64,000 bases of DNA from a virus. The first letter of the stretch is position 1. Each line of letters begins with the position of its first letter. Location: positions 1 to 64,000 of the IMG/VR virus record IMGVR_UViG_3300029953_000012; one strand, given 5' to 3'. The notes beneath the pieces are model-generated. The model was not told where the DNA came from, made no database searches, and worked only from the letters and a program-made list of their open reading frames with translations. This document shows positions 23,861 to 58,678 of the stretch, in pieces. The position numbers and the translations under genes were made by a program.

Positions 23861-26800
23861 TTACACCTTGAAATTTTGCAAATTAACAGCCATTGTCAAT
23901 GAGTTTCCCTCGCTCGTTAATATGCCAGAAAGATTTCCAGAATCCAGAATATTAGTCGTGCCTTCTCCAGAAAAAATACATACTCCAGTGTTATAAATCG
24001 AATTTGTGGATGTGGAATCTATAAAACCATATTGGGCAATCGCTTTATATGTAACATTTTCCGATAAATTAAAGCCAGTGGCGCTAATTTTTTGGCCTTG
24101 AGATGCGCTAAACGTTAAATAACTCCCCATAAAGACATTTCCATCATCAGGCGGCATTTGTTCATATATAAGTTCAGGATTTAATAGTCCTAAGTCACTC
24201 CAAGCTGGCCACAAGAAAGAATTATAACCAGAATCAAAATATGGCGAGGCGTTGGTATAAATATCTCCACCAGTAATATAAAAATAATTTTGACGAGACT
24301 TCATATATGATGGCGCTGGCAAAACCGGCTGATAACCACTTCCAGAAGGGATATTAAAAATACCAGTCGGTATTCTACTAAGAACATCTGAAACATAAAT
24401 CGGTTGAAATAGTCCAGATAAAGACCTTGCTCCAGAAATACCGGAGAGACATATCCCGTCACTTATGACGGCACTTTCAGCTTGTCCCGTATATCCAAAT
24501 ATTCCACTAACAATACATTCACCAGAAGGTACAATTATTTGTTGACTTTGATAAGGAATTTGTCCTATTCCCGAAATTAACAAATTATTAATTGTGAAAG
24601 AAATCCTTGTAACATCCCTAATACCAGTAAAATATGCATTAGGTGTTTTTTTTGACCAATAATATGCCGTTGGATTTCTGGGATAAGTAGTGTTACCGAA
24701 CGCATCTACACCAGTAGGAACAATGCTATAAAAATCAATATCTGGTTGAGGATAAAAAATAGTACTATTTATTGCTGTTTCGTATGTGAATGATTGTCCT
24801 ACAAGACTTTGAAAATCAAAATTTTGGAATGGAACACTAAACTGACTTTCAGCATTATTATTAATAAATCTTGAAAAATCCAAATACCTAGAGTCACCAA
24901 ATTGAGAAGAGTGCTCTTCTCCATTAACTGGGTCGTCAAAAGAATTAGAAGCAAAAATTTTTCTTGCCCTAATAGTAGCTAAAGATTTTGACGAAAATCC
25001 CATTAGTGTTCCAGTATTTCCTGAAATATTAATATTAGCTATAGTACCTTCTGGAATTAATCCAAAAGTAGTAATAACAGGACTTCTATTATTAATACCG
25101 GGGGCAATACCAGAGTCTAATACGAAATTTTGTGCAATTGTAGGGCAAACTCCAACAGAACCAGTTTGAGTTATTGGAATATTATTTAATAACAAAACTC
25201 CACTAGGAAATAATAAATTTCCTGTTGCTACACATAATTCTACATCTCTATCAAAAGGTCCAATATTTAGACCCCCACTAGAATATAAGACTCCGGTATT
25301 ATAAAAAAGTGGAAATGACGTAGATAAATCAAAATCAAAATAATATTCTGTCCCAATCCACCTAGAATTAAAATTAATACCCTGAGACGAAATGATACTT
25401 GTGAACGGCTGAACATTATAATTGTAGTAATAAGGGTAATAATTTAAATTTTTAGAATAAATATTTAATCCAGAAGATGTTAATCCCAAGACAAACAGGT
25501 AGTTGTCGTTTTCTGGTGCTCTTACATGATAAAATGAATCGGAATTTGCTCCTATGAAACAAGGATTACAGTCTTCTGCTATTCTAGTCCCCCATTGAAA
25601 AATATTTACATCATACCAAGCGTCTCCGATTATTCCATGAGGATGATTTCCTCCTTCTGACTCGGCACCACTACCAATTCTGCCCCCAATATATTTATAA
25701 AAAATTGGGTCTTGTCCACTAAAAAACGTATTTCCATCTAAAAGTGCCCCACTGTCTCCATTTAATGATATTGTTTGATTTCCTTCAAAACACGATACAC
25801 CAGCTCCATTTGTATAATTATTTATTCCTGAGTCAAGTACTAAAGAAGATATAAGTTCCCCAGATTCTAAATTAAAAATCGGAAACGTATAATTCATTGT
25901 GCCACTCATTGTTTTCCCAGTGTAACCCCAAAATAATGGCTTTTGGGCAGGACTTAAAATATAGATAGAACCACTTTTGTTTATTCCTGTCATTACAGTC
26001 TTTGTAGTTGTCCCTGAAATAGCTTTGACTCCGCAGTTCCATCTAGATGTTATATAATCAGTACCGAAATTTGAATTATATAAAAAAGAATTTAACGAAG
26101 GGTCTGAAGTAAAATTTATTGAAGGAACATAATTTGAATCCACCATATTAAAACCAAGATAAGCAGAATATTGGAAACCCCCATTTTGAAGGTAAAAACC
26201 AGTATTAGAGAAGGAATACGAGGAGTCAAAATTATGATTATCTGGAACAAAAGGCTCAGCCATACTACTTTTTAATTTTCCCGTTAAAGAATAGCCGGTC
26301 GCTCTTATTGCATTTGGATAAATGTATTGTCCGTATTGATTTTTTAAACAATAGACTTCGGTTACTGTTTCTTCGTTAACTTGTATATTGTAATTTACTG
26401 ATGTAGGAAAACCGTTAATAGAAGCCGAATAGTCCTGAAATACCGCTTGAGCGTTAGGATAAAGAAATGTATTTTCATAACTTAAATAAGGCCCACTAGA
26501 GTAACGAGGAATAAAATTTTCTACTTTTTGGGTATTATATATTGCTCCATAATTAGAAGGATTTCCAATCACAGAACTAGGAATAGGAGCAAAAATAGAC
26601 CAACCAGTATTGACCGCGCCCAATGTTCCATCTGGATAATAAGAATATAAAATAGGTTTGCCAAAATAATTAACACCAGTAGATGTATCTCCTGTAATAA
26701 TAAATGCATATTGTTGAACCAAAGGATATACTATCCCACCAACGCCAGTAAATCCAGAAATATAGTTTATTTTTGAATAAGAAGAACCAATGGTGTTTGA

Positions 26801-28629: not shown

Positions 28630-31600
28630 TTATAGATTAACCGACGCCGATGCCAAAACCGAATTAGACATGAAACTTGAGCGTTGTGATTCCTGATACA
28701 TCGATGAACCATAATTTAGAGTCGGTGTAATATAATTACAGTGGTCAGCCCCACCATCAAAACATGGAGAAAAACCATTCAATTCAACCCCCGAAAGACT
28801 ATATCCCCCAGCAAAAAGTGCCCCTGTTAAATATTGTAAGTGAGGAGTTCCAAAAGCTCCTCTAAAATATGTTCCAGATGCATCTATTAAAGTCATATTT
28901 TGGGTTGTATTACCAATTACTGGACTATTTGCTACAATTCGATATCCATGACCACTGGGATAATTAGTTGTTAATTCTTGTTGTTTTCCTCCTGCTAAAA
29001 AACCAAATTGATATCTCATACTTAAACATGGGTCGAAACAGTCTCCATTTTTTAAATCAGAATCTGAACATCCATATAATTGAAATTCTTGATTTTGAGC
29101 AAAATAAATTCCAGACTGAACATACTCTGATGTTATTCCTGAATTATCTGGTAAATACCCCAAAAATACATCACCATAAGCCCTACCTTCTTGTCCAGAA
29201 TCGGCGATTACACCAAATCGCGTTGTTTTAACTCCCTGTAGATTTTCAGGACCAAATACTTGTAATCTGGCATTGTTCATTGTTGCGATGTCTTTTGTCG
29301 ATTGGCCATATTTAATACTTAAACCATAAATTGCCGGAGCATCATATTGTTGTGAATAATTCTGGTTCCATCCATAAGAATAGAAACCTTGTGATACTCC
29401 ATTTCCATTTCTGTCTCTATTCTGAGGGCGAGTCTTCCAATGATAAGCATATGGTCCAAACAAAGGATATCTTTCTAAGTAAGTATTATTAGGCTTACCA
29501 AGCCAAAAATACTGCATTGAACTATTAGTACTTCTTAGCCCCGGACTCATATAATTTAAATTAACTACGTTTTTCTTTTTAAGCGTATCGCAATAATCAT
29601 AAAAAGAACTAAAACCCTCAATCCAATAAATCATATTTCTTCCAAGGCCATTTTTATGCCAACCACAGTTATCTCCCGCTAAAACCCCATCACTAAGAAG
29701 ATTTTTCTTAAGCGTTTCAAAATCTGATGCAGATAATTGATAAGGAGTCTGAGAAAGTATGGATTGTGGAGAGTTCCAACCAAATAAATGAATGGTGCCT
29801 AAGTTATTACCCCATTGCCATTGGCCAATTCCCGGTGATATTGTTACTTGTCCAGCGTTTGTAATTTCCACAGAAGGGACATATAATTCACCAGCGTTTC
29901 CTAATTGGTTCCATTCGACTCCATATTTTCCATCGGTATCAACTATCGGATATTGCATATTAGCCCAATGAACAACACCATTTATGACTACCCTTATACC
30001 ATCCTGCATAGAAGCCATTTCATAATTCGTACATACCGGCAAATGATTTCTTCCATAAAGGAAATCTCCATCTGTTTGAGTTAACGTCTTTGTATACTTT
30101 GCTAAAGAACCATAATGTAACATTCTTCCCCAATCTTCAATAAGTCCCCTTGTATCATATAAAGTTCCGGGTGTATAACTTTGACCCGCTCCTCTATATC
30201 CCCACAAACCCAAAAATTTATAAGAATATACATCTCCCCATCCAGCGTTAGGAGGAGGTAATTGTTCTTCTACCACATCTTCTGGAATAGCGTATGGGTC
30301 ATTGACAAAACCGGCATAATTTTCAACACCTGAAGATTCCATATTAACTGAATAACTATTAGTACTATCTTGGAATGAAACCGTTGGAGCCGCTCCGACA
30401 TTACCACCATTTAAAATACTTAAATCAAATTTTAACCAATTTTCAATAAATAATTTTGATGGTTCACTAATTCTAATTCCAAACCTACCTTTAACCATAC
30501 AAAAGTAATAATATTGGTCGTCTATCCCTTTTTCAGCCCCTTTAATAAAGGTCATGTAAAAATTATTCTGTTTGGCCGTTTGATAATTCGAATCATTAAT
30601 AAATTCATAAGACCAAGCGGGATTGTATGAATTATAGGGTGGTATACATGCTTGAGGATGAATTAATGTACAAACTGGTCCATTACCCTCTAATGGGCAC
30701 CAATTTCCAGTAGGACTAGCTGGGTCAAGAGCACCCCAATTAGGATTAAGAAGAAAATTTCTAAAATCATTTCCAGCGAATGTTCCTATACACGAACTAA
30801 TTGGAATACGATACCACTGATAAGATAGCGGGTAAAGATTGTTGTAATTTTCATCAACCATTTTGAGTTTGGTAGTCCAATAAACAATTTCGGGATAGCG
30901 AATATTTATCTTATCTTCGGGGATAGTGTGATAATCTACTGCTAAAGCACGAAAAGTGGGTGATTGACCTATTTTACAGTATGTTGTATTAAATGGCTGT
31001 TGAATAAAAATTGGAGTAAAGCACGAAAAATTTCCCTGAAGTTTCCCAATGCCATTATATCCCATAGCCAACCATCCATTACCCACATATCCTTCTCCCA
31101 TGACTGTTCCTGTAACAACTGGTTCATAAGTTGGGATTGGTAACTCTGCGCTGATATTAGAATTGAAATATCCGGGATAGAATGATGAATTATTTATATT
31201 TGCCACTTCTCCGATAAAACTACTTAGTCCAGATACGTTTTGCCCATTACCATAAGTACCCAAAAAGAATGACCTTGTTAAACCGCTATCTGCAAAGTAA
31301 TGATTCAAACCAAAACCACCGTAAGCTTTCCCCCAATTAATACTGTTAATAAAATTACCAGCTTTGTCGTAACTAAAGGCTATTTTATTAGTAGGGTATA
31401 GGTCTATTGGATTTCCTTTAATATAATTTTCCAAATATCTCGACGACATTCTTTGTTGTTTCGCCGACGCCAAACCACTATAAAAATTTGTGTCAATATT
31501 CCCAACGGATTGCAATACTACATATCCATATGTATTTTCTATATTAGTCCAATGATAATTATCACCGGCTCCGGTTAAAATTCCATTTAAACTTTGTTTA

Positions 31601-33393
31601 AAATTCATGTATACATCATTATTACTTAGAATAGGATATATCATCCCGGTAGCGTATAGCACAGAGGCCGCGCCACTTTCAAATAATGGTTGGCCATTTA
31701 ACAAAGAGTAAATTCCACTAGGGAAAACAGCACTTAATCCATTAAATAAATTATTATACAACACTAAGAAACTCTGATTACCAGTTAACGCATTATAATC
31801 AGAAGATTGAGCTATTAAACCTGAATTAGCCCATAGAAATAATGCCATATTCAAACTATAGAAATCAGAACTATCTTGTTCGGCTTGTGCAACATTAAGT
31901 AGATTGGCGTATGCGGCAAAACTCCAATTAATTCCTGCGTCACCATTTAAAACGGTGTCAGTGGTTCCATCCGTAGAGGTATAAGTCACTCCTGTATCTA
32001 TTTCCACGGCATCTGGATAAGCTGGATTACCACTAACCGCATAATCAAAAGGTAAACTAACACAGCCATTAAAAAACCTTGTTCCATAAAAGCCAAATTT
32101 GTTTAATGCGGCATAATAGGGAATATCAAAGTAATAGGACGGACAAGCATAAATTGAAGCACCAAATGTATGTGGGAGAAAATTTACTGTTTCTGGACAT
32201 TGACGCCTAGCCCAATAATCATCAGAATCAGCTAAGGTATAATTAAACAATTCGCTTCCAAATGCTGGTTGATTAGAAGTGGCTGCGATACCTACATTAC
32301 CTCCATTATTATCTTGTCCATTACTAAATGGAAAACCGTCAGAGTTTTCTTTATAGAGTAGGTGCCATATATTCCACCAATTAAAAAAATCAAAATTAGA
32401 AGTCGAATCTGTATTATCAACATCAGGAGCGTCTAACAGAAAACTTTCTACAGAAGTTCCAACACCATTTAAGGAACCTTCTGCTACTAATCCCGGACAC
32501 GTAGGCATAACATTAAAAATAGAATACTGTTGAGATATAGTATAATAAGGAACTGGTCTACCTGAGATATAGGAAACTATATTTTCGTTTTGAGCAGAAG
32601 TAGTACCATCGCCATTTGGTACATTAGGAAGACCGCTAGAAGTAAAAGCATAACGATACACCGTGTTAATAGCAAAATTATCTAACGATGTTGGAATTGG
32701 GTTGGTATTGTAATAAGTATTACCGGCGACTGAAGATGCTGTTCCGCCAATTATGTTATATTGAACTTCGTCCCAATAAAACGCCACACTTAAATCTTGT
32801 GGACACGCAATAGCAGGAGAATTGATAAAAGCGGTTGCACTAGTAGAAGACGCACTAATACCGGGGTCAAGTTGGGTGTTAATTCCGAATAAATCATTAT
32901 ATTCGCTATTCGTTAATGTCGAACAAGAACCGTTTTCGGCTAAAGCATCTGTACCGTCTTGGTTCATTTGATAAATACTGGCGTTTTGACCAAAAGGTGG
33001 GGCGAAATATCCGTCTTGACAAAAGGCGTTGTAGAAGTTGTAACCTGAATACCAACAATTTGAATCTGAGCCGACTCCATGGCAAACGCCTATTAATGGC
33101 TGAGAGATTCGATAGTAGAGGTATCCGCTTAGGTCAGAAGCATTTGCTGTCGCACCAGAAATTACACCCGTTGGACTTTGCAGGTACCCTGAATCGATGT
33201 TAGCGTTCCCAGATTGGAAGAATACTAAAATTCCGGTAACACCTGTTGCGTTAAGGCCGTTTGCGATTAAACTCGGAGCTATATTATCATCAAGAATTGA
33301 ATTACCTGTGGACAACCCACTTTGGGATAACCATAAAGAGTAATTTCCATCGAAAATATTATTAACGATGACGCCTGAACCTGTGATATTCAT
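28630..33393 (-). CDS. Large virion structural protein with an Ig-like segment, 1587 aa
   Basis: PIFIQQP..TF...YQWYR...YYFCMV pattern of an I-set Ig domain; Cys- and aromatic-rich. Confidence 0.65.
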   Translation of the reverse strand: MNITGSGVIVNNIFDGNYSLWLSQSGLSTGNSILDDNIAPSLIANGLNATGVTGILVFFQSGNANIDSGYLQSPTGVISGATANASDLSGYLYYRISQPLIGVCHGVGSDSNCWYSGYNFYNAFCQDGYFAPPFGQNASIYQMNQDGTDALAENGSCSTLTNSEYNDLFGINTQLDPGISASSTSATAFINSPAIACPQDLSVAFYWDEVQYNIIGGTASSVAGNTYYNTNPIPTSLDNFAINTVYRYAFTSSGLPNVPNGDGTTSAQNENIVSYISGRPVPYYTISQQYSIFNVMPTCPGLVAEGSLNGVGTSVESFLLDAPDVDNTDSTSNFDFFNWWNIWHLLYKENSDGFPFSNGQDNNGGNVGIAATSNQPAFGSELFNYTLADSDDYWARRQCPETVNFLPHTFGASIYACPSYYFDIPYYAALNKFGFYGTRFFNGCVSLPFDYAVSGNPAYPDAVEIDTGVTYTSTDGTTDTVLNGDAGINWSFAAYANLLNVAQAEQDSSDFYSLNMALFLWANSGLIAQSSDYNALTGNQSFLVLYNNLFNGLSAVFPSGIYSLLNGQPLFESGAASVLYATGMIYPILSNNDVYMNFKQSLNGILTGAGDNYHWTNIENTYGYVVLQSVGNIDTNFYSGLASAKQQRMSSRYLENYIKGNPIDLYPTNKIAFSYDKAGNFINSINWGKAYGGFGLNHYFADSGLTRSFFLGTYGNGQNVSGLSSFIGEVANINNSSFYPGYFNSNISAELPIPTYEPVVTGTVMGEGYVGNGWLAMGYNGIGKLQGNFSCFTPIFIQQPFNTTYCKIGQSPTFRALAVDYHTIPEDKINIRYPEIVYWTTKLKMVDENYNNLYPLSYQWYRIPISSCIGTFAGNDFRNFLLNPNWGALDPASPTGNWCPLEGNGPVCTLIHPQACIPPYNSYNPAWSYEFINDSNYQTAKQNNFYMTFIKGAEKGIDDQYYYFCMVKGRFGIRISEPSKLFIENWLKFDLSILNGGNVGAAPTVSFQDSTNSYSVNMESSGVENYAGFVNDPYAIPEDVVEEQLPPPNAGWGDVYSYKFLGLWGYRGAGQSYTPGTLYDTRGLIEDWGRMLHYGSLAKYTKTLTQTDGDFLYGRNHLPVCTNYEMASMQDGIRVVINGVVHWANMQYPIVDTDGKYGVEWNQLGNAGELYVPSVEITNAGQVTISPGIGQWQWGNNLGTIHLFGWNSPQSILSQTPYQLSASDFETLKKNLLSDGVLAGDNCGWHKNGLGRNMIYWIEGFSSFYDYCDTLKKKNVVNLNYMSPGLRSTNSSMQYFWLGKPNNTYLERYPLFGPYAYHWKTRPQNRDRNGNGVSQGFYSYGWNQNYSQQYDAPAIYGLSIKYGQSTKDIATMNNARLQVFGPENLQGVKTTRFGVIADSGQEGRAYGDVFLGYLPDNSGITSEYVQSGIYFAQNQEFQLYGCSDSDLKNGDCFDPCLSMRYQFGFLAGGKQQELTTNYPSGHGYRIVANSPVIGNTTQNMTLIDASGTYFRGAFGTPHLQYLTGALFAGGYSLSGVELNGFSPCFDGGADHCNYITPTLNYGSSMYQESQRSSFMSNSVLASASVNL

Positions 33394-37390: not shown

Positions 37391-38188
37391 ATGAGTGAAA
37401 TTGTTTCTGAAACCGTTGCCGAAATTAAACCAGAAGAAGTCGCAACAGATTTTGCCTCGACAGCCATGCCACCAAGATTATTTGCCCGAAATGGTCATGG
37501 TCTTATAAGAGATGGTAGTATTAAATATGTTTATGATTCTGATGGGTTAGTTAACTGGAGGGCTATGATTGACCCAAAATATCTCGCTATTAACAAATCA
37601 AATTTCGAGAAAAGACAACGCCCCATTCCTGATTCTATTATTGGTCTTGAAGACAAAGACCTTCTTATACTTTTGCCCGGAGTAAAAAAACTCTCTCAGG
37701 TCAGGGGATATGACTCAGTTACTTATTCTGTTGTTTCTCCATCAAAAGATTATGTTGTGGCAACGTGTGAAATAAATTGGATTCCTAATTACGAGACAGA
37801 AAACAAGTCAATAAAATTTAGTGCAATTGGTGATGCTAGTCCCGAAAATACCACAAGTTTTGGTAAGAATTATCTTGGCCCTATTGCTGAAAATCGTGCT
37901 TTTGTCCGCGCCGTGAGGAACTTTTTGAAGATTAATATTGTTTCACAAGAAGAATTAGGCCAAAACGCCATGTCCTCAGACTCCAACACTATCGACCCAA
38001 GTCTTGAAAGTATGTTGGCTGTAATGGACGCATTTGGAATTACGTTCGAGAAGATTAAGGCAACTTTAATTAAAGACGGATTCCCTGATGCAGATAAATT
38101 AGAGAGACTATCTGATATTCCTGCTATAACTAGATTTTCCTTGGTCGGTCGCATTAAGAAGAAAGCTAAAGAGAAGGCGGTAAGTTAA
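37391..38188 (+). CDS. Rad52/Sak-like single-strand annealing protein (putative)
   Basis: GDASPEN.......IAENRAFVRAVRNFLKI...SQEE resembles the Rad52-fold signature helix. Confidence 0.55.
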   Translation: MSEIVSETVAEIKPEEVATDFASTAMPPRLFARNGHGLIRDGSIKYVYDSDGLVNWRAMIDPKYLAINKSNFEKRQRPIPDSIIGLEDKDLLILLPGVKKLSQVRGYDSVTYSVVSPSKDYVVATCEINWIPNYETENKSIKFSAIGDASPENTTSFGKNYLGPIAENRAFVRAVRNFLKINIVSQEELGQNAMSSDSNTIDPSLESMLAVMDAFGITFEKIKATLIKDGFPDADKLERLSDIPAITRFSLVGRIKKKAKEKAVS

Positions 38189-38189
38189 T

Positions 38190-38287
38190 CATAATCTTTC
38201 TGCGCTGCGTAAATATACGTTGGTAGAAGTGTGTTTCTAAAACACTCACAGAAAGAAAATATAAATTTACAAAACATACTTTACGCA
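38190..38287 (-). ncRNA. Pseudoknotted structured RNA, copy B (orphan)
   Basis: P1/P2/P3 helices covary with the copy at 48468-48563; preceded by GCGTAATTA. Confidence 0.7.
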
Positions 38288-38319
38288 TAGATAATTACGC
38301 ACAAAATTATGTTTGTGAA

Positions 38320-39252
38320 TTAAGATTTTACGAAATATGTCGGGGAATAGTTTATCAAACTCGAAGCTCTTGAAGCTGGAACAGTGACTGGATTCGAGAG
38401 TACAATGAGCGGAATGCAGTTCGTTATACTTTCACGGGCCTTCAACCCAAAGTTTACATCCTCATACTTACAGAAATTAAACGGCAAAGTTGTATTGTTA
38501 TAGAAAGCGTAACCACCGTTCGAGGAATAATAAAACTTGAAATTTGACGACCCATTAAATAAACTAATTAGTGAAGTTGCTTGGTCTGGGAAAATTGAAA
38601 GTTCGAACGCCTCATATTGCAATTTATTTAACTGAATTGAATAATTAGTATTTGTCCCATCTGTCGGTAAAATTGTTTTAATTTCCAACACGCTGGCTCC
38701 GTTGCTGTTTACGATGTAAGGATTACTGTTCAAGCCTTGATTATGCCATCCTTGATAATATCCAATGGCGGAACTATTAGCATCCCAAATATTGCATTGC
38801 GAACTAAAAAATGCGTTCTGATTCAATAAATAATAAAAATCATCATCCTTAATTAATTTAACCTTAATTTTCTCACCGAGTTGGTATGGATTATTGATTG
38901 GTGCGATGGCGTTGACCGAGTAGTTGACCGCTGTTCCAACATTAGTGTTTAGGTTTGCGTCTACCCTCTGTTGTGTCGCTGGGTTATTCTGCCAACCGCC
39001 CTGATAATTTATCCAAAGTGATTCTGGCCTCTTCACAACGATAACCATGTTTTTGTACTTATCACTCGTTAAAACGCGGTTGGAGGATTCCAATTTGCAG
39101 ATAACATATCTACTTAACAAATCCGCCTGATAGTCTTCTTGAAGACCGGGGTCGCCGTAATTAGCAATAACGGTTGCGTCATAAATAGCGTCTTTGGATT
39201 CCAAATTTCTATTCGTTGTAGTAAGATAATTAAATGTTGTATCGGTTGCCAT
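38320..39252 (-). CDS. Putative virion/baseplate protein
   Basis: N/Y/T-rich; lies in the tail operon. Confidence 0.55.
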   Translation of the reverse strand: MATDTTFNYLTTTNRNLESKDAIYDATVIANYGDPGLQEDYQADLLSRYVICKLESSNRVLTSDKYKNMVIVVKRPESLWINYQGGWQNNPATQQRVDANLNTNVGTAVNYSVNAIAPINNPYQLGEKIKVKLIKDDDFYYLLNQNAFFSSQCNIWDANSSAIGYYQGWHNQGLNSNPYIVNSNGASVLEIKTILPTDGTNTNYSIQLNKLQYEAFELSIFPDQATSLISLFNGSSNFKFYYSSNGGYAFYNNTTLPFNFCKYEDVNFGLKARESITNCIPLIVLSNPVTVPASRASSLINYSPTYFVKS

Positions 39253-44674: not shown

Positions 44675-46735
44675 TTATATAAAAAAACCAACAGAATCAG
44701 TTGCTGTATTATATAGACTGAAAGCAAATTGCGGGTCAACGTAATTCCCGCTGCACGTTCTGCATCTTGGGTATTGAAAATAATCTAATCCTTTATATTG
44801 TCTTAAGCCGTTTATCCACACTTGAGAACTAAAACCCGACACCCCGCTAATATAAGAACCACTTCCAGAAAATTCAACAAAAGTTCTAATTAAACCTAAA
44901 TATTGAGGAATGAACTTGATTTCCAAAAAATCTCCTGAAGGGTCATTTATATCGCCTAAATCATTGCCAGAAACTGAAATATAAGATGAATTTGTGAAAA
45001 AGGTATATATTGGACCATTAAATTCAAATCCTGTTTCTGTCCATTGACCCGTCGGAACAGAACTTGGTACTCCAGAAGCTGTATAAAGTGTTGAAAATGC
45101 AGTATAAATCCATTCAGAACCATTATAAGTTATACTTCCAGCGTTATTAGAAGCTTCATATTCCAATGAACCACCAACTCCTGTTCCGTTTATATAGTAA
45201 GTTCCATTAAACGCTGCTGAACCACCAACGCCTCCGCTTACATTTAGAATATTTTGACTCTGGACTGAATAGTTCAATCCACTAGCCATTTTTTGCCCAT
45301 TTAAATATATATCTGAAGCAAAATTAGCAAGAGACATACCACTAACGCCCGTTATATTAACAAAATTACTACCTGTAGTACCAGTTTGGATATATCCGGT
45401 ATTATACGGCATGGTGTAAGTGGCTGGATAAATATCATACTGTAAAATATCATTTCCATCAAACCCTATAATTAAATTATTAAATGCCACACTAAAATCT
45501 ACTCCGCTTGTTTCTGCCAAGCCGTTGCCATAAATTTGGACCACTGAATTCGAACTGGGATATTGAAGATTAGTTGGTTGGAAACCGACATTAGTGTTAA
45601 ATGGAGAATAGGTATAAATTTCTACTATATCACCAGAAGTAAAACCTTGAGGGAAATAATAATCAAATAAAATTCCACTTGCTGCTTGAGTAGAATTATA
45701 TCCAAAAGAAATTCCGCTATTATATACCGTCCCACTTATTATTTCAGATAATGGAATTAATACTTTACCCACTTGTATTAAACCAGAAATACCAGAATCT
45801 ACATAAACATATCCTGTCCCACCACCAACCAATGGATAAGGAGTTTGGACTTGAGTTGTTGAAATTAACCCACTTTCATAAATTCCTGACCAAATTGAGC
45901 CAGTAATTTGGGTTTCTGTGTAATTAATAGGCGTGGAAGTGGTAACATAGCCAGTGACAAAAGCGCAATTAATACAACCACCCATGAAACTGTTATTTAA
46001 TAAACCGCTAAATAAGTAGGCTTCGTTTATTTTACCAGAATAACCAGTAAGACTTGTGGAATAAGATAATGCTCCTCCAATTGTCAAATCAACAACATTT
46101 ATAATTTGACTTCCTTCGTCATAGCCCTTAGAATAAAAAATATTGTCAGCGACACTAAATAATCCAAAATTTACAAATCTATTTCCTAAAACACTAAAAT
46201 AAGCGAAATCTCCAAACCCAATCTCTTTTGTAATCGTGTAAGCATAATCTGGTGTTTGTAAAAATAATCTATTAGATGGCGTTATGCCTAATATGGCACC
46301 AGAAACAGAACTTGTTTGAATTAATAATTGATTTTTGGTTCCGGTATAATTACATCCACTATAACCGAGATAAAGAATTATCGAAAAATCCTCGGTAAAA
46401 ATATCGGAAATTTGGTAAAAGTAATTTCCGGTTAGGTTTCCGCTTGTTTGAGAACCCACTCCATTGTATATCATTGGCAGGGCATCATTGTAAGGGAAAG
46501 ATGTGGAAGATGAAGATGAGTCATCTAAAACACTTCCACCAGCATCAGTAATAGGAGAATCTTCTGGGTCGTAAATTTGATTGCCGCTACTAAACACAAA
46601 ATAATGATAGCCCGTTGGATAAATTTGGTTCCAGACAATCAAACTATCTCCGCTAGAAAAGTCGTATAGACCCAACGCTGTGCCAGTGTTGATTCCTGTA
46701 GCCCCTAAACAATTTATAAATGGGAGAAATTTCAT
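44675..46735 (-). CDS. Virion structural protein with a LamG-like segment
   Basis: LTIGG.....YSGKINEAYLFSG resembles the LamG C-terminus; [ST]G-rich. Confidence 0.55.
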   Translation of the reverse strand: MKFLPFINCLGATGINTGTALGLYDFSSGDSLIVWNQIYPTGYHYFVFSSGNQIYDPEDSPITDAGGSVLDDSSSSSTSFPYNDALPMIYNGVGSQTSGNLTGNYFYQISDIFTEDFSIILYLGYSGCNYTGTKNQLLIQTSSVSGAILGITPSNRLFLQTPDYAYTITKEIGFGDFAYFSVLGNRFVNFGLFSVADNIFYSKGYDEGSQIINVVDLTIGGALSYSTSLTGYSGKINEAYLFSGLLNNSFMGGCINCAFVTGYVTTSTPINYTETQITGSIWSGIYESGLISTTQVQTPYPLVGGGTGYVYVDSGISGLIQVGKVLIPLSEIISGTVYNSGISFGYNSTQAASGILFDYYFPQGFTSGDIVEIYTYSPFNTNVGFQPTNLQYPSSNSVVQIYGNGLAETSGVDFSVAFNNLIIGFDGNDILQYDIYPATYTMPYNTGYIQTGTTGSNFVNITGVSGMSLANFASDIYLNGQKMASGLNYSVQSQNILNVSGGVGGSAAFNGTYYINGTGVGGSLEYEASNNAGSITYNGSEWIYTAFSTLYTASGVPSSVPTGQWTETGFEFNGPIYTFFTNSSYISVSGNDLGDINDPSGDFLEIKFIPQYLGLIRTFVEFSGSGSYISGVSGFSSQVWINGLRQYKGLDYFQYPRCRTCSGNYVDPQFAFSLYNTATDSVGFFI

Positions 46736-46752
46736 TTACCGTTTTCCTACTG

Positions 46753-46761
46753 TAATTACAC
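46753..46761 (-). promoter_or_regulatory. Late-promoter motif GTGTAATTA (representative copy)
   Basis: Recurs upstream of structural genes at 33400, 48420, 57815, 59805 and 61694, with variants elsewhere. Confidence 0.65.
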
Positions 46762-46762
46762 A

Positions 46763-48409
46763 TTAATAACCAAAGAAAAATCCCGAATTTCTTGTTGGGA
46801 CGCTTATAGTGTTACTACCAACAGCCTGTAGTGATAATAGACCCGCGCTAATACCATTATCCTGACCAATCCAAGTTTGAGTATGTGAAACATCAAATAC
46901 TCCAGTGGTGATTTCAGCATTAACTAAAAATGCGGTCACATTACTTTCAGAACCGGATTGAACGTAAGTAGAAGATATTCCCTGTAAATATCCACTCAAA
47001 ATACTAAGTCCACTGGCGGTATTATAGGTATTTCCTTCAAATGTAAATTTTTGTTTAGGTCTGGTTGCTGCTTGTAAATTTTGCACAACGTAGTCGCCTT
47101 CTATTGTAGCTCCAGCTAATAATTCATAAATCCATCTAGAAGGTTCTGAATCCATCGCATATTTCAAACTATCAAGACCCATAGGTTCAAATCCGTCTTC
47201 CATATTTAAGGATAATTTTAGTTCTGCCAATTGACTATTCTCGGTGACTTCTACATCACAATTAGGAGAAAAGTTAACAGCATTATTGTGATTACCCGAA
47301 AAAACAGGTGAACTTATAATTAAACCTGTTAAAAAGGTTCTCCAATTATTCCCACCGTTGGTATTTTTGAAGATTTGGATTTGATTTAGGCGATAGTCGA
47401 GAGGGCCGAACGTTCGAAAATCACCTTCTATCTTCCAATTTTCTGTATTGTTTAGAAAGTTTTGTGTGCAAGTCACGCTGTAATCTAGGAAACCTGAAGG
47501 ATTAGCTCCAGACACATATCCGACTTTAATATCAATAGTTGCCGCGCCAGAATCTACACTTGCATTATAAGTGTTCTTAATCCAATTCGTAGTGTTATAT
47601 CCAAACTCATTCTGTATGTCCGCCAACATTCCATAATTCAGATTATTAGTAATAATAGAATTAAGATTATTGTTTATGGGAGAACCTTGAATTTTTAAAT
47701 TATAATCCACCACCCTAAATTCTTCAGTTATACCGTCAGAAATTTCTAATGAAGTTTTTTTGACGAAAGGAGAAATAACTCCAGTATTATAAAGATAGTT
47801 CTCTGTAACTGAATAAATTGCTTCTGCACGATTAATATTTTCAGAGACAGATAATAATACCCCGGAACCCGAAGGGACAAGATAAGGAATACACGAGCCA
47901 AAAGCATCCTGACCCGTAAAAGTTTGAACAAATGAGATAGCGTTTTGAAAAGCGGGATTGGAATTTCTTACTCCTTGAGCACTGATTGAATGCAAAACTG
48001 AAACTGAACCATCTTCTCGTTCGGTGAAACTATAGGCGTTGCTAGGTTGTAAAATTCCTGATGGCATCGCCCATGATTTTAGTTTTATATTATACTTAAC
48101 GAATGAGCCTTGGAAATAAGTATTTTGGTCTAAACTAATAGACTCTACTGTAATTCCAGACCAGTTATATAGAACATTATTTTGGTCGTCTTGGACTAAT
48201 AAATCTTGGAACTGATTAGAAAAAATTCCGGTTAGATAATTTATTACTTGTCCTGTGTTTGTAATTCCTGTTACAAAACCTTGTAAATCAATGGCGGTTT
48301 CGTAAGAATATAAATATCCAAATTGTATAGGAATTTGTGAAAAATTACATAGGGGTGTCGGTGGCCCTAGGGTCACGCCGCCATAACTGATATAAATTCC
48401 AGTAGTCAT
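46763..48409 (-). CDS. Tail/baseplate protein
   Basis: Beta-rich; shares a 'YSF...DG....H..S' motif with 49374-51143; downstream of the tape measure. Confidence 0.55.
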   Translation of the reverse strand: MTTGIYISYGGVTLGPPTPLCNFSQIPIQFGYLYSYETAIDLQGFVTGITNTGQVINYLTGIFSNQFQDLLVQDDQNNVLYNWSGITVESISLDQNTYFQGSFVKYNIKLKSWAMPSGILQPSNAYSFTEREDGSVSVLHSISAQGVRNSNPAFQNAISFVQTFTGQDAFGSCIPYLVPSGSGVLLSVSENINRAEAIYSVTENYLYNTGVISPFVKKTSLEISDGITEEFRVVDYNLKIQGSPINNNLNSIITNNLNYGMLADIQNEFGYNTTNWIKNTYNASVDSGAATIDIKVGYVSGANPSGFLDYSVTCTQNFLNNTENWKIEGDFRTFGPLDYRLNQIQIFKNTNGGNNWRTFLTGLIISSPVFSGNHNNAVNFSPNCDVEVTENSQLAELKLSLNMEDGFEPMGLDSLKYAMDSEPSRWIYELLAGATIEGDYVVQNLQAATRPKQKFTFEGNTYNTASGLSILSGYLQGISSTYVQSGSESNVTAFLVNAEITTGVFDVSHTQTWIGQDNGISAGLLSLQAVGSNTISVPTRNSGFFFGY

Positions 48410-48467
48410 TCCTAATCATTAATTACACTATTTTGTTATTTTTTTCTATTTTATGTGTATAATATTA

Positions 48468-48563
48468 TGTACAGATAATATGAGATTAGTTAGACCATTT
48501 TGGGCTTTTCGTGAGCGTTTTGGAAACGCACTTCTTCTCATAGAACTGTACAGCACGAAAGGC
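48468..48563 (+). ncRNA. Pseudoknotted structured RNA, copy A (leader of the GIY-YIG gene)
   Basis: P1 TGTACAG..TATGAGA/TCTCATA..CTGTACA; P2 GCTTTTCGTG/CACGAAAGGC; P3 GCGTTT/AAACGC. Confidence 0.72.
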
Positions 48564-48567
48564 TTTT

Positions 48568-49377
48568 ATGAATAAAATATCGGGGATATACCAAATAATA
48601 AATACAAAAAATGGCAAATTTTACGTTGGAAGCTTAAAGGATTGTTACGCAAGAAAAGGGAGGCATTTTAGGCACTTAAAAAATAGAACTCATTATAATG
48701 ATTATTTACAAAGGTCTTTTGATAAATACGGGGAATCTTCGTTTGTATTTTTAGTCTTGGAAGAAGATATACCTGAAAATAGTTTGCTTTCTATAGAGCA
48801 ATTATATTTAGACGAAATATCTAAAGATAAACAACATTCTATGAATGCTGGTTTTATAGCTGGTAGAGTAGAAATGACAGACGAAATTAAACAAAAAATA
48901 AGAATAACAAGGATAGGGAAGAAAATGAGTGAAGTTACAAAAAAGAAACTTTCTGAATTGGGGTTGGGGGAAAAGAATCACTTTTTTGGGAAACACCATA
49001 CACAAGAATCAAAAAAGAAAATTGGTAAAAAGGGAGAAAAACATCCATTTTTTGGTAAACGTCATTCTGAAGCAAGTAAAAGAAAAATATCCAAAGCTAA
49101 TAAGGGAAGAGTCCTGTCGGTCTTGACTAGAAAAAATATATCTCTTGCTAAAAAAGGAGTTCCTCGTTCAAAAGAGGCTATAAGGAAAACACAATTAGCG
49201 ATAATGATTCCAATAAAACAATTAGACAAAATAACTGGAAATATTATTAAAATTTGGCCGTCTATGAAGGATGCATCAATATCATTAGGAATTAGCAATG
49301 GTTATACTGGCAATATTAGTAGAGCATGTTCAAAAATAAAACCATCTGCCTACGGTTTCAAATGGGAATACGCTTAA
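48568..49377 (+). mobile_element. GIY-YIG homing endonuclease with NUMOD3 repeats and a NUMOD1-like C-terminal HTH
   Basis: SGIYQI.....FYVGS, FFGKHHTQESKKKI / FFGKRHSEASKRKIS, C-terminal AYGFKWEY; antisense within the tail operon. Confidence 0.92.
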
Positions 49378-51143
49378 GGATTATTTGCCGAAAGCCGCTT
49401 TTTCCAAGTATATACGTAATTGATTTCTACGACCAATTTTCCATCTGAGTTAAACGAGTAACGAGAAGATTCTAGAAACCAGTTTAACGTTAGATTAGGA
49501 GTATTCAATTGATTTAAAAAAGTTGTCCCTCCGTACTGATATAGAGCCGTCAAGTAATTCGCCAAAGGAATCCCGTTTATAGTAGAAAAATTTCCAGATG
49601 GAAGAGCGAATTGATTACTCTGTTTTCCTAACTGAGTATTAAAACTGATGGAGATTTCCCCTTTCTCTGTTTGATAAGCGTAAGATAGGACTGATAAATT
49701 GTTTGGCCTATTTACAATTTTAAATTCATTTACAATATCCACGGGTTTTTTATTTGAAATTTTCACATCCAACACATTAAACTCCAACCCATTTACGGTA
49801 ACAAAATAAGAAGGGTTGTTTGAATATTCGAACTTACAAGACCCCCTAGTTTTTATATTGGGCCACGTAAATTCCCGTGAAACCATGTTCATTTCTGGCA
49901 ACTCCGAGTCAATAACAGAAAAATTATTAGTGTAGTAGTTACTAATAGTTGTTGGACTAATCCCGGTTGTGTTATTCATTAGTGTCTGAAAATATCCCGA
50001 ATTATTTATAATACGGTTTACTGTATAATCAAAAGTATGTGATGCCTCAATAAGATTGTAAGTTCCTATCTTAAATTCTATCAATTGGGCAGTAATTGTT
50101 CCGTCTCCAGAAAATGTTGGATTGTTGGTAAACGATGTTTCGTAAGAGGCCGACAGACTTCTAGCATCATAAGTCTTAATGGTCTTCACTGGCGTATTTA
50201 TTAGTGGGAGTAAACCAGAATTACTTATAACTAAATATTGACTATCTTGGTTAATCACGCCGCTATTATAAAATCCACTATAAATATTAACACATCTGCC
50301 ATAAGAGTTAGATAGGTAATAATCTAATGTAGTTTCTGCCACCGCGAAATTGATTTTCCCAAAGGTAGAAGTTCTCTCTGAAACTTGGATAACACCATCC
50401 GTGCCCATCTCCAGAGAGTTAGTCAGGTTATAGATTATACCAGAACCATCGAAAGGTAGTTCCTCTCTCTTACGCGAAAAGGAATATTGGTTTTTAAATA
50501 GGTCTACTGACTCAGTATAGTAGTTTCTGAATATACCAGTATTTCCTACTCCACTTATCTGGTTGACCATAGTATATAGGCCGAATGAAGTTCCAGTATC
50601 TCCAGCGAAAATCCCGCTGGCTATCTGAGCCGCCAAAGCCCTTCTTCCCGTGGCTGTATTCGTACCAGAAATACCCGTTCTAATTCCGAAAGATAAAGCA
50701 TGATTAAAGTTTCTATTTCCATCAGCATTAGTAGCAAACGAAAAATCTTCCTTGAAGTCTAGAATCGTTGTTCCAAAATTTATGAAAAAACCCGTATCCA
50801 AACCTTCATAATAATTCCCTGTTAGTTCAGGAAACATTGATACAATATTAGTTACTGGGGAATGTACTTCCACCGTAACATTAAATTTAGATGCCTTTAA
50901 AGAGTCCGACGGGAAAGCGTATGTGTTTTGTGTTTGGAATACGGTAGTATTAATATCCCCGCTATAAACTTGCAAAAATTGCTGTTGTATTTGACTTTGA
51001 ATTGTCTGAGCAGAAACCAGATAATCCGTGCTATAAATTTCAAAACTATAAACAGAGACATCCTTTAAAGCAATAGAATTAGCTAAAAATTGCCTCGAAA
51101 CTTGCACTCCCAAAGAACCCGTTACCAAGCCAGAAATATTCAT
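49374..51143 (-). CDS. Tail/baseplate protein immediately downstream of the tape measure
   Basis: Position and beta-rich composition. Confidence 0.55.
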   Translation of the reverse strand: MNISGLVTGSLGVQVSRQFLANSIALKDVSVYSFEIYSTDYLVSAQTIQSQIQQQFLQVYSGDINTTVFQTQNTYAFPSDSLKASKFNVTVEVHSPVTNIVSMFPELTGNYYEGLDTGFFINFGTTILDFKEDFSFATNADGNRNFNHALSFGIRTGISGTNTATGRRALAAQIASGIFAGDTGTSFGLYTMVNQISGVGNTGIFRNYYTESVDLFKNQYSFSRKREELPFDGSGIIYNLTNSLEMGTDGVIQVSERTSTFGKINFAVAETTLDYYLSNSYGRCVNIYSGFYNSGVINQDSQYLVISNSGLLPLINTPVKTIKTYDARSLSASYETSFTNNPTFSGDGTITAQLIEFKIGTYNLIEASHTFDYTVNRIINNSGYFQTLMNNTTGISPTTISNYYTNNFSVIDSELPEMNMVSREFTWPNIKTRGSCKFEYSNNPSYFVTVNGLEFNVLDVKISNKKPVDIVNEFKIVNRPNNLSVLSYAYQTEKGEISISFNTQLGKQSNQFALPSGNFSTINGIPLANYLTALYQYGGTTFLNQLNTPNLTLNWFLESSRYSFNSDGKLVVEINYVYTWKKRLSANNP

Positions 51144-51146
51144 ATA

Positions 51147-54100
51147 TTATTGTACCTTTGCTGGCAGCGGCTGATTACTAGTTACACTCTTAATTAAATC
51201 CAGTATCCCTGCCGCATTTGGAGTAACTGTAATATTAATTGGTGCCAAACCTTTAGACAATATCTCTGCCGCTGCCGTCATCAATTTTGCGGCTGTCATT
51301 AAATCAACTGCTCCCGTTTGCAAATTCTTAAATCCTTCCTGATTTTTCTGGAGTTCATCCTGTCTATTATCTTTCGTGGCAGTAAGATTTTGTTTATCCA
51401 AAATACTTTGTGGAGTTTGATTTCCAAATTGTTTCTGAGTAAGACTAGAAGCAGATTTTGATGCCAAGTCGTCGTTATATTTTAGATATGCCAATCCCGC
51501 ACTACTCTTAGTTAAATTGCGCTCAATCATCTGCCTCTGGGCTTCTCTGTCCTTCTGATACTTAGCCTCTAATTCTGGAGAATCTTTACCCAAGGCAGAA
51601 TAACTTTGGTTTCCTAATCCTCCTTTATAACCATATAAATAGCCGTTTCTATTAATGGTGTGTTCAGGTAAAATTCTGTTTTGGAAAATATTACTTTTTG
51701 TTTGGTTAAAATAGTTATTGGCGTCCTTATCGGTTAGGGCTTTTTCTATTCTGGCACTTTTTGAATGCATACCCGTCGCGTGTTCGTAATTTTGATTAAA
51801 TACTTCGTCGGTAGAAGTCCTATATTTGTCTCCATACTTTTTGATAAAATTCATTCTATCATCAAGTCTTTTGCCGCGAACTTCTTCTGTTTCAATTTGG
51901 GAACCGTATTGCATCCTTTCACTATTTTTATCAACCAAATATCTTCCCGCCATAGCTACATAGCTTAATGGACTCTTGCTAACCCCTAATAAGCCAAGAC
52001 CCATATTACCAATTCCTTCTGAATAGTGTCCTTGTTTAAAATCGTCATATGATTCCTTAGCAGCAAATCCGACTCCTACCGCTCCTAACGCAGTACCTCC
52101 CACTCTGGCAAATTTACCAAGTTTACCAGCGTTTTTCCATCCAGAAAGTGGGTTTAGAGAATCTGCTAATGAGCCAAATTTAAGTGAAAAAGCCTCCTTT
52201 ACTCCACTAGAGGTTGAAGAAACGTTTTTTGCTAATGAATCACGTAAAGAAACTCTTCTTGCTATTTCAGTGTCATAAGCTGTTCCACTGCCATAACGTA
52301 AAGGTTCTACTTTAAGTGATTTTCCAATTTTTTGAGATTCTTGACTATTTATGGTTGAAATTCTATCATTCAAAACTCCTTCACGAGCAGAATTTCCTAA
52401 TAATAAATTCCTAGCTCTTGTATATTCCCTTAAGGCTGTTTTTCCTCCCTTTAGAGAAGAGGTATTAACTTGACCAGCGAGTATATCATAATGTTCTGGA
52501 AGAAGACCTTTTTCTTGACCACCAAGATATGTTTGTTTAATATATTCCGGCATTCTTTCCTGACGAACCTTAAGAATCTTATCATAGGCATCCTGCATTC
52601 TTTTTTCATAAATAGCTTTATTTGACGCTAAAGTTTTAAGTTCTGCTTTGGCGTCTTCAATAGGACTAAAAGCGGTTCCTGTTGGTGCGGCAAGTTTAGA
52701 ATTCGAATTTATAGCGAAATTAGATTGTTTCTCTAATGTTGGAATACCAAAATTTCCTTTAATTTCTTGAGCTACTTTTGAGGCAGCTTTTTCTCCAGCA
52801 GCAATCGCAGACTCACCAGCTTGAGCCGTTTTAGGATTTATAATTGCTTCTTTAAGTCCTTTAAATTCTGTTACTAATTCCTTTGTGGCTTCTCCCCCTC
52901 CACGACCCTTGAACATTGCCCCAATAGATAAAATTAATGCACCCGCAGATAACATAGCCCCACCAGACGGAATGGCGTTCATTCCCAATGTTTGATACCA
53001 CTTAGCAGGGGGTGGTGTCGGAGGAGGTGTAGAATTATCTGTTCCGTTAGGAGTATATTTATTAGACTCGGCGGTTTTAGCGTCTTCTGACTTTTGAATT
53101 AAGTCCTGAAAAGTTTTAAAATTAGTACCTAGTGTTTCAAGACTATGAGAAAAAATATCCAAATCACCAGAAGCGCGTTTTACTGAGGTATCCAATGGAC
53201 TAATATCCAAACCACTTTGTCCTCCGGGTATAGGGCTATTAATATCCAAAGATGGCGTATTAACCCCCTTATACTTTCCAAAAGTTCTATCGAATGACCT
53301 TTCATCACTATTAGCAAATTGCTGTAAACCAGAACCAGCGTAAATATAATTATAAGCCGCTCTTGAACCAGCTTGAGCAGTGTCATACAAACCTCGTATT
53401 TGAGGATTATTATAATCTCTCTCGTCAGAAGGTATGAAATTAAGCAAATCTCTAGCTGCCTCACCTCGGCGTATGGTGCTGCGACTGTGAGTCATTGTAT
53501 ATTCATCTCGGCGAAGTTCTATACGAGCACTTCTAGCACCCCCACGAGCCAATTCATCAATACCTTTAATACCATCCGCTAGTTCGCTAAATCTGGCAGT
53601 CTTAATCTCAGCAAGTAAGTCATACAAAGCCTTAGTTTGTTCTTCGGCGTTCTTTTCTGCAATAGTCTTGGATTCAAGAAGGATATTACCGATATCTTCG
53701 GTTTTGCTTGAAAGTGCGCTGCTTAAAGAACTCTGTAAACCACTAAATTGAACGGGTTTAAACATCTCATTTCCCGTTTCTCCAACAGTAGCTCCAGCCC
53801 CCAAAAAGTTCTTAATAAAAGAATCTTTGTCCGTTACTCCACTGAGAATATTTTGTGGGTTTTTGGAAAACTCAGATAACCTCGAAGCAAGATATTCATT
53901 TTGTCTTTGTTTGTCTGGTAATAACGTAGCAAGACCGGAGGCGTCTGTTGAATTTGTCAAAGTTGGACGAATAAATTCTTGAGTAACCTTTTGTAGACTT
54001 TCGCTAATAGATTTTTTGCCAGCAATATTATTTAATGACGAATCTCTCTGAAATTGGTCATTTAAGTCTTGGATTTTCAACGCATAACGCTGTTGAATTG

Positions 54101-57785: not shown

Positions 57786-57817
57786 AAACTCTTATTCCTG
57801 TGTGTTGTTACCACTAA

Positions 57818-58678
57818 TTACACAGTTTCTTGTTGATTTCTCTTACCAATATTTAAAGAATAATGAAGGTCATACCAAGCAGCTACGTCTTTGATTTTTG
57901 CATCAAGGTTCAAATCTGGAGGACTTCCCTTGGTATTTTCACGGACGTTTAGATTACGTGTGCCCAAAGAAAACAGATAACTCTGATGATGGGACATTGA
58001 AGATATGGACTTATTTAAGAACTTACTTATATCGTTTTTTACATAAGTTAATTTATTGAGAAACATTGGTAAAGATGCTATACCTTTAAGATTGTCTTCT
58101 GAAAACTTTTTGTATTGTTCGGATAAAGAAGCGCCTAATTCATTGATATTAGTAGGCTCCCATAGTTGAAAATCTTCATATGTTTTTTCAACATGTTCGG
58201 TTAATTCTGAATCCTTGTAAAAGGACAGGTAAATTACATAATCATTTACGTCATCATCAATTAAGTCTTCGATATTCCTTCCCAGAACCTGCTTTCTCTC
58301 AAATAAGATTTCTGAAAGTTGTTTTTTTCTTTCGTTGATGATTTTTTCAATAATAGGACGCTGTTGGTAAATAAGATTGGGAAGATTTCTCTCGTTATCT
58401 GAAATTTCGTATTTTAATTGAAGGATTTGTTCTTCTTTATCTTTAGACCACTCCTCATTATCAATGGCTGTTTTTAGTAAGTAGGATTCGTGAGGAACAC
58501 CTTCTTTTTCGTAATAATAGAATAGTTCAGTTCTTTTTTTTAAAATTGAATGGCTGTCTTTATCCGAAAAGTGTTTGATGTATAAAGAAGACTTAGGGTC
58601 ATAACTAAAACCATCAAGAATTTCAAAATAAATTAATTTTAAAACGTCAATTTCTGAGATATTGATGACCTGAGACAC
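57818..58678 (-). CDS. Putative tail assembly chaperone 2
   Basis: Charged helical protein directly upstream of the tape measure. Confidence 0.5.
   Translation of the reverse strand: MSQVINISEIDVLKLIYFEILDGFSYDPKSSLYIKHFSDKDSHSILKKRTELFYYYEKEGVPHESYLLKTAIDNEEWSKDKEEQILQLKYEISDNERNLPNLIYQQRPIIEKIINERKKQLSEILFERKQVLGRNIEDLIDDDVNDYVIYLSFYKDSELTEHVEKTYEDFQLWEPTNINELGASLSEQYKKFSEDNLKGIASLPMFLNKLTYVKNDISKFLNKSISSMSHHQSYLFSLGTRNLNVRENTKGSPPDLNLDAKIKDVAAWYDLHYSLNIGKRNQQETV

Follow-up and report, generated by a model that had tools for sequence, protein, structure and literature searches.

A Pseudoknot-Type Leader RNA Before Nuclease Genes of Two Families in Uncultured Phages

Introduction

Homing endonuclease genes need to be expressed in a way that is harmless to the phage that carries them, and the only well-studied solution of which we know is that of the unrelated hairpins of T-even phages. 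The same question is raised by a locus in the IMG/VR virus record IMGVR_UViG_3300029953_000012, of which positions 1 to 64,000 were analysed (this whole stretch of 64,000 nucleotides is referred to below as the window): what is the structured RNA that stands directly before a free-standing nuclease gene at 48568-49377 on the plus strand, and what does it do there? A preliminary description, made from the letters alone, had put forward a pseudoknotted leader with a second copy on the minus strand. The answer given here is that the leader is a previously uncatalogued family of structured RNA of about 100 nucleotides (nt), found in uncultured peat and groundwater phages, with three covarying helices, and that it is common to two unrelated nuclease families, GIY-YIG and HNH/endonuclease VII. 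As for its function, it is held with modest confidence to be a cis-acting 5′ leader RNA in a cassette of promoter, leader and nuclease gene, which would keep the translation of the nuclease low or conditional.

Structure of the Two Leaders in the Window

The leader of the first copy (copy A) covers 48468-48563 on the plus strand. It is preceded by a promoter-like motif GTGTATAAT (TG + TATAAT; 48455-48463), which is separated by ATTA from the first helix, P1, whose 5′ strand consists of TGTACAG (48468-48474), an internal loop ATAA and TATGAGA (48479-48485). After a variable linker (48486-48503) come the 5′ strand of the second helix, P2, with the sequence GCTTTTCGTG (48504-48513), a single A (48514), the P3 hairpin GCGTTT-TGG-AAACGC (48515-48529) and ACTTCT (48530-48535); on direct reading and covariation, the junction A, P3 and ACTTCT together make up the conserved core (48514-48535). 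P1 is then completed by TCTCATA (48536-48542), GAA and CTGTACA (48546-48552), and, behind the junction G at 48553, P2 is completed by its purine-rich, Shine-Dalgarno-like 3′ strand CACGAAAGGC (48554-48563), after which TTTT leads to the ATG at 48568. P1 is thus built of two perfect segments of 7 base pairs (bp) around a 4 × 3 internal loop, P2 has 10 bp including one G-U, and P3 has 6 bp with a 3-nt loop. Since the strands follow each other as P1 5′, P2 5′, P1 3′ and P2 3′, P1 and P2 cross.

The second copy (copy B) was defined by direct reading and a covariance model at 38190-38287 on the minus strand with its ATG included, the helices spanning 38287-38196. Its promoter-like motif is GCGTAATTA (38292-38300), with TTCACA 17 nt upstream of AATTAT. 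P1 (38287-38273 / 38221-38206) has 15 bp with one bulge and two G-U pairs, P2 (38255-38247 / 38204-38196) has 9-10 bp with one G-U, and P3 (38245-38231) differs from that of copy A by one compensated pair; ACTTCT lies at 38230-38225, the junction G at 38205 and the ATG at 38192-38190. Direct reading found every segment that had been listed for copies A and B at its coordinates and in the order P1-P2-P3-P3′-P1′-P2′. The G-U pairs are compatible solely with the plus strand in copy A and the minus strand in copy B, and for the reverse strand of copy B the fold is no better than those obtained from shuffled sequence (z = -0.9). A covariance model made from copy A alone (R1) retrieves copy B at E = 6.7e-7 as the sole other match in the window, and the complete record of 100.2 kb contains these two leader copies only. 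A consensus terminator scan also flags P3 with the T-rich run that follows it (48515-48545, plus strand) in copy A, which is probably incidental; as copy A alone was flagged, P3 + ACTTCT as a terminator was dropped.

An Uncatalogued RNA Family and Its Covariation

A degenerate pattern of the core, run over metagenome contigs, gave five loci, four of which (L062, L063, L064 and L066) carry the whole fold, and leader copies were thereby placed at L066:1305-1418, L063:3035-3149, L063:6049-6163, L064:7081-7197 and L062:526-627. The last of these is the counterpart of copy B, on a contig from another strain of the window phage (97% identity), and a slightly different pattern run over IMG/VR contigs gave a copy at L116:7857-7964 (the same copy is present in L115). 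Five independent copies and a strain variant of B have in this way been added to the two with which the preliminary description began, and the seven independent copies are A, B, the two of L063, and those of L064, L066 and L116. The variant of L116 type is also seen as loose ends of peat metagenome contigs aligned to the window, whose DNA is present in many peat metagenome runs of one campaign. L065 was rejected as a copy, having the core only, with neither P1 nor P2, and was taken as chance.

The alignments were fitted with covariance models and the pairs were counted over the seven independent copies, so the following figures come from a small set whose alignments had been fitted to the very structures tested. 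For P1 and P3 together, standard pairs occupy 97.1% of cells against 38-58% in register-slid controls, the score is reached by 0 of 500 shuffles, and changes on both sides occur at 13 of 20 pairs (12 of the 14 in P1, one in P3). For P2 and P3 together, the pairs are standard in 100% of cells (43-64% in register-slid controls), again with 0/500 shuffles reaching the score, and 7 of the 16 pairs have changed on both sides (6/10 in P2, one in P3). That is to say, the compensatory changes claimed for all three helices from two copies hold across the seven. The sequence of P1 is wholly different among the copies and its length is always 14-17 bp, while P2 has 10-12 bp in the family; the second pair of P3 is C-G, U-A, G-C, A-U or G-U, and its remaining pairs are unchanged. 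The first pair of P1 is U-A in six copies and C-G in one, and about ten G-U pairs across the family fit the sense strand only.

Between these variable helices, the inner pairs of P2, the A between P2 and P3, P3 itself, ACUUCU and the single junction base are near-invariant. The invariants that had been listed for A and B do hold in those two copies, but not family-wide, for L116 has ACUUCG and L066 has A at the junction, where the six other independent copies have G. In all copies one base joins the 3′ strand of P1 to that of P2, so that coaxial stacking of the two helices is favoured, and on this model P1 and P2 would be formed at the same time. P3 is a near-perfect palindrome. Two further proposals were dropped: for a triplex or a pairing partner of ACUUCU, no conserved complement was found by eye, no systematic search having been made, and a conserved leaderless mini open reading frame (ORF) at a 5′ AUG is contradicted by the triplets ACG in L064 and UUG in L116 and by differing ORF lengths and frames.

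The earlier failure to match the motif to a known RNA family agrees with the searches. The whole window gave no match to Rfam 15 in cmscan at gathering scores, and at E up to 10 the surroundings of both copies gave chance-level matches only, the best reaching 18.7 bits against a cut-off of 43 bits; a scan for tRNA and tmRNA found none, and megablast of 46000-52000 against INPHARED gave no match. The first core pattern had no matches in IMG/VR, and the 12 IMG/VR loci and 14 loci of GTDB genomes given by a looser one are all core-only chance or weak matches with broken pairs, the stray core-only matches in both collections having neither P1 nor P2. The leader is absent at 60 distant GIY-YIG loci (L002-L061; models R1 and R2), more remote than the nuclease relatives P0002 (nuclease 80% identical) and P0003, and therefore it is not a general GIY-YIG leader. 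It is likewise missing from 16 IMG/VR records to which the phage is linked by its sigma factor; when five of these were searched for NUMOD3, no match came up, and the control was silent as well. The flanking tail proteins, used as queries against IMG/VR, returned no relatives. A full-text search of the literature found no description of such a leader, which is not proof of absence.

Genes Behind the Leader and Insertion of the Cassettes

The end of the leader is 2-7 nt from the ATG in every copy, the 3′ strand of P2 always holds a purine tract (GAAAGG, AGAAAG, AAAAGA or AAAGGA), and a run of 3-5 U comes after P2 in five copies. According to domain searches, the gene behind copy A encodes an intact-looking, free-standing GIY-YIG/NUMOD3 homing endonuclease of 269 amino acids (aa), with matches to GIY-YIG (PF01541; 2.5e-7, 31.3 bits, cut-off 22.6), to NUMOD3 (PF07460; 1.4e-19, 70.2 bits, in three stretches) and to phrog_314 (4.7e-33). 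Its N-terminal GIY-YIG catalytic domain and NUMOD3 DNA-binding repeats are the arrangement of I-TevI-like enzymes, and it runs antisense to the tail genes on both sides. The first copy of L063 is followed by another GIY-YIG/NUMOD3 gene (L063:3147-4127), and the second by a NUMOD3 gene with a GIY-YIG-like N-terminus (L063:6165-6986). Behind the L064 leader there is an Endonuclease_7 gene (L064:7078-6656) and then a second one, and behind that of L066 an HNH/endonuclease VII-like gene (L066:1419-2300). In L064 the two Endonuclease_7 genes (140 and 122 aa) stand in tandem with an 8-nt overlap at 6295-7078 on the minus strand and have a single leader.

The two remaining independent copies have no nuclease gene. 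In L116 the leader is followed by a 44-aa ORF that has no nuclease domain and corresponds by homology to the N-terminal module repeated in the L066 protein, and in copy B, as in L062, by a stub: the reading frame that begins at the ATG has 8 codons, and the ATG directly adjoins the stop codon of the convergent gene 37391-38188. The association with nuclease genes thus comprises GIY-YIG/NUMOD3 in three copies, HNH/endonuclease VII in two, an HNH-type remnant of 44 aa in one and an 8-codon stub in one. Having been described as the leader of a GIY-YIG gene, the motif keeps that description in copy A and loses it in copy B. The copies of B and L116 would be decayed cassettes with a retained leader, which fits the decay stage of the homing endonuclease cycle.

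The origin of the two window copies can be read from a relative, a phage of 124 kb (G014), whose sigma factor is 66% identical and whose orthologues of the genes flanking both sites have 42-56% identity. The tail genes at the site of copy A are 9 nt apart in the relative and 964 nt apart in the window (48410-49373), and in this 964-nt segment the leader and the nuclease gene are accompanied by a GTGTAATTA that faces outward and belongs to the downstream gene. At the site of copy B, the convergent genes are 13 nt apart in the relative against 131 nt in the window. Because the flanking genes are adjacent in the relative at both sites, copies A and B are insertions, and the mobile unit of promoter, RNA and nuclease that had been proposed is borne out, the promoter-like motif and the nuclease gene having been inserted together. 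The cassettes of the window, of L063 (both), L064 and L116 are antisense to their neighbours. Copy A and L116 have an identical centre and P2, with both P1 strands and the downstream gene different, and the leaders that resemble each other most include those of L063 (GIY-YIG) and L064 (endonuclease VII), at 68-69%; from these two relations it follows that leader and ORF are exchangeable modules.

The differences between the window and L062 are limited to a patch of about 60 nt (38290-38345), which extends from the 3′ end of the gene 38320-39252 into the P1 5′ strand and ends there, two changes in P1 keeping or improving the pairing. A 23-nt indel relative to L062 is also found inside the same gene (about 38510-38532). 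Patch and indel look like the boundary of a recombination or co-conversion tract. Elsewhere in the genome, a DnaB-like helicase gene (12650-15127, plus strand) has LAGLIDADG/Hom_end domains in its middle (residues about 401-479), probably an intein, and a late-region protein of 572 aa (L095:1373-3091, minus strand; genome 65373-67091) has a LAGLIDADG_3 match near its N-terminus and may contain a second intein or a fused homing endonuclease. Two adjacent giant ORFs of 1586 and 1587 aa (23861-28621 and 28630-33393, minus strand) have no Pfam match.

Promoter-Like Motif and Transcription Start

In all eight copies (the L062 variant included), exactly 4 nt separate the end of the promoter-like motif from P1; the motif takes the forms TG + TAATAT, TATAAT, TAATTA or TAAATA. 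Six of the eight, copy A not among them, also have a -35-like TTCACA, or a match to it at 4-5 of 6 positions, 17 nt upstream; variants are CTCACA in L116 and TTCAAT in L063a. The -10 part resembles the 9-mer GTGTAATTA, which is enriched in the window (5 exact copies against 1.06 expected) and occurs nine times genome-wide, 8-35 nt upstream of a same-strand ORF start in 7/9 cases. One of these late-type 9-mers (48420-48428, minus strand) lies inside the inserted segment, points away from the nuclease gene and is 10 nt upstream of the ATG of gene 46763-48409; further examples stand before late-gene ATGs at 46753-46761 and 57815-57823 on the same strand. Among the genes of the phage is one for a sigma factor (L096:2257-2943, minus strand; PF04542).

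In L063, similar motifs stand just 3-6 nt before ATGs, and the late mRNAs of these phages may be leaderless or nearly so. With motifs so near the starts, the late messages seem to have very short leaders, and a structured leader of about 100 nt is therefore exceptional. In L064 (11618-12267, plus strand), an arrangement TTCACAA-N-TTGTAATAT precedes a Cys-rich ORF of 208 aa with a leader of about 14 nt and no structured motif, so this promoter type is not tied to the leader. The transcript of the cassette probably starts with the first P1 nucleotide or no more than a few bases away from it. The linker of four metagenome copies contains TATAATAA, which copy A does not have; transcription might also start internally, at the TATAAT found in four linkers, yet this lies upstream of the P2 5′ strand.

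Function of the Leader

Under translational control, the transcript would fold into the three helices with the 5′ strand of P1 at or beside its presumed 5′ end, and P3, an almost invariant 6-bp hairpin, would be flanked by the conserved A and ACUUCU. The 3′ strand of P2, following P1 by one base and ending 2-7 nt before the AUG, would bring the purine-rich, Shine-Dalgarno-like stretch of the ribosome-binding region into pairing and so limit translation; P1 would stack on P2 through the continuous 3′ strands and reinforce it, and the effect would be independent of which nuclease follows. In all copies a helix covers the ribosome-binding region before the AUG, as in control of the T-even type. 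Among the roles named in the preliminary description, the translational switch best fits the anatomy, because P2 covers the stretch right before the AUG.

Several observations weigh against this reading. A Shine-Dalgarno-like 4-mer precedes 25% of the ORFs of this phage against a background of 11%, and with so weak a use of the signal, its masking may overstate the case. Since the promoter-like motif lies upstream of all helices, the cassette's own transcripts hold both strands of P2, which leaves no evident mechanism of release. The near-invariant core is more than a masking helix needs and hints at a bound factor or a tertiary fold, and copy B retains the fold with no gene to regulate. On the structural side, coaxial stacking obliges the 6-9 nt after P3 to span P1, which is possible and sterically tight, and when only nested pairs are allowed, some copies fold into P1 and others into P2. 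Contigs of one permafrost metatranscriptome cover only 49184-49449 and two short pieces, and not the leader. The weak Shine-Dalgarno use, the over-conserved core and the gene-less copy B keep three other readings alive, namely a factor-sensing switch, protection or processing of the RNA 5′ end and, less probably, self-cleavage.

It is conceivable, if doubtful, that the invariant junction (A, P3, ACUUCU and G, with the RNA 5′ end docked) is a functional pocket, in which case the leader would found a new class of switches for ligands or proteins, or would be a new small self-processing RNA; the cassettes would take it along, whatever their nuclease family, so as to set the moment at which they are expressed in the phage. 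The switch in its narrower form, riboswitch-like or operated by a protein, is rather unlikely; here the inner P2 pairs, A, P3, ACUUCU and G would form the binding pocket, and P2 would either close over the ribosome-binding region or, with the U-run, terminate transcription. Its conservation is aptamer-like, with variable covarying helices around near-invariant unpaired bases, and in the first copy of L063 and in L064 an alternative hairpin between the linker and the outer P2 5′ strand can free the P2 3′ strand (z = -3.1 and -2.5), this hairpin itself covarying (AAAAGAT/ATCTTTT against AAAGAAT/ATTCTTT). The hairpin is, however, absent or weak in A, B, L066, L116 and the second copy of L063, and as a family-wide feature it was dropped; the U run of 3-5 behind P2 in five copies is likewise offset by the fact that such runs are commonplace in DNA of 30-37% G+C, the gene context yields no candidate ligand or protein, and the family has only seven copies. 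Less likely again is a role in RNA stability, in which P1, stacked on P2, would lock the 5′ end and shield it from 5′-end-dependent RNases or mark it for processing. The fixed 4-nt spacing between motif and P1 would place the RNA 5′ end at the junction of P1, P2 and P3, P1 is free in sequence while its pairing is kept, and copy B has kept the fold with no ORF behind it; but the transcription start is a presumed one, and a simple 5′ hairpin would do the same, leaving P2 over the start region and the invariant core unexplained.

A self-cleaving ribozyme with the nested topology of hepatitis delta virus (HDV) ribozymes, trimming the RNA at the 5′ edge of P1, is improbable. HDV-like ribozymes do occur in mobile elements, the strand order P1-P2-P3-P3′-P1′-P2′ is theirs, and the conserved bases are concentrated at the point where P1 reaches the junction with its 5′ end. 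Against these stand the lack of P4, of P1.1 and of a cytosine at the 1-nt junction, which is G or, in L066, A, a first P1 pair of U-A or C-G instead of G-U, a P1 of 14-17 bp and a P3 of 6 bp with a 3-nt loop, the lack of a match to any Rfam ribozyme family even at E up to 10, and a promoter 4 nt upstream that leaves almost nothing to cleave off. The likeness in strand order noted in the preliminary description, along with the missing P4 and J4/2 cytosine, therefore stands, while membership in the ribozyme class is not supported. The probability is still lower for an element acting as DNA, whose palindromes would only appear as helices; it could be an operator, a site of homing or of recombination, or a miniature mobile element represented by its inverted repeats. 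P3 is indeed nearly such a palindrome, the differences between the window and L062 stop within the P1 5′ strand as at a recombination boundary, and A and L116 have an identical centre between different P1 strands; yet on the other strand, or in DNA, the ten or so G-U pairs would turn into A-C mismatches, three helices covary, one of them crossing, and the orientation to the downstream ATG is always fixed. The G-U pairs and the three covarying helices make a DNA-level role unlikely. Hardly credible at all is a guide or cofactor RNA bound by the nuclease, in the manner of HEARO or omega RNAs, which had been suggested from the position beside nuclease genes and would suit a leader with some parts highly conserved and others variable. 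One leader serves two unrelated nuclease superfamilies and decayed stubs alike, which speaks against such a role, the nucleases bring DNA-binding modules of their own (NUMOD3), and neither a RuvC or IscB-like protein nor an Rfam HEARO match is present.

Comparison with Known Systems

One homologous pseudoknot-type leader is used across two nuclease superfamilies in several diverged uncultured phages and outlasts the decay of the nuclease, so that the regulatory leader and the nuclease ORF appear as exchangeable modules of a mobile cassette. The new structured RNA family has covariation that is unusually clean for its small size. With about 100 nt, it is a compact and testable candidate for a new regulatory or catalytic RNA fold, and in phage metagenomes it can serve as a marker by which free-standing nuclease cassettes, intact or decayed, may be found.

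Among the known RNAs, HEARO and the omega RNA of IscB resemble the leader in being structured RNA directly beside a mobile nuclease gene, but HEARO goes with IscB (RuvC + HNH) and supplies a guide, whereas the leader is part of the mRNA and its partners are of GIY-YIG or endonuclease VII type. HDV-like ribozymes have the same strand order, a 5′ end of P1 that is central in the fold, and an association with mobile elements. They differ in possessing P4, P1.1 and the catalytic J4/2 cytosine, none of which the leader has, the single nucleotide between the 3′ strands of P1 and P2 in all its copies leaving no room for P1.1 or P4; moreover, they have G-U at the base of a P1 of about 7 bp and a 3-bp P3 with a longer loop, as against 14-17 bp and 6 bp in the leader.

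The closest comparison is with T-even phages, in which structures sequestering the ribosome-binding site control I-TevI, I-TevII, I-TevIII, segB and mobE of Aeh1 (PMC2988022). In both cases a structured RNA before a homing endonuclease gene pairs with the ribosome-binding region, and in both it occurs before GIY-YIG as well as HNH genes and together with a promoter of late type (PMC2988022). The T-even hairpins, however, are simple and mutually unrelated, and their late promoter lies inside or after the 5′ arm, so that late transcripts escape the structure, whereas in all eight copies of the leader the promoter-like motif is upstream of every helix and such an escape is not provided. The T-even genes are embedded in polycistronic early or middle messages, and the leader cassette runs antisense to its neighbours. 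In summary, the leader would work most like the translational control of the T-even phages, yet it forms a family of its own, in which nuclease genes of different families and in different phages have one homologous pseudoknot-type fold and its invariant core in common.

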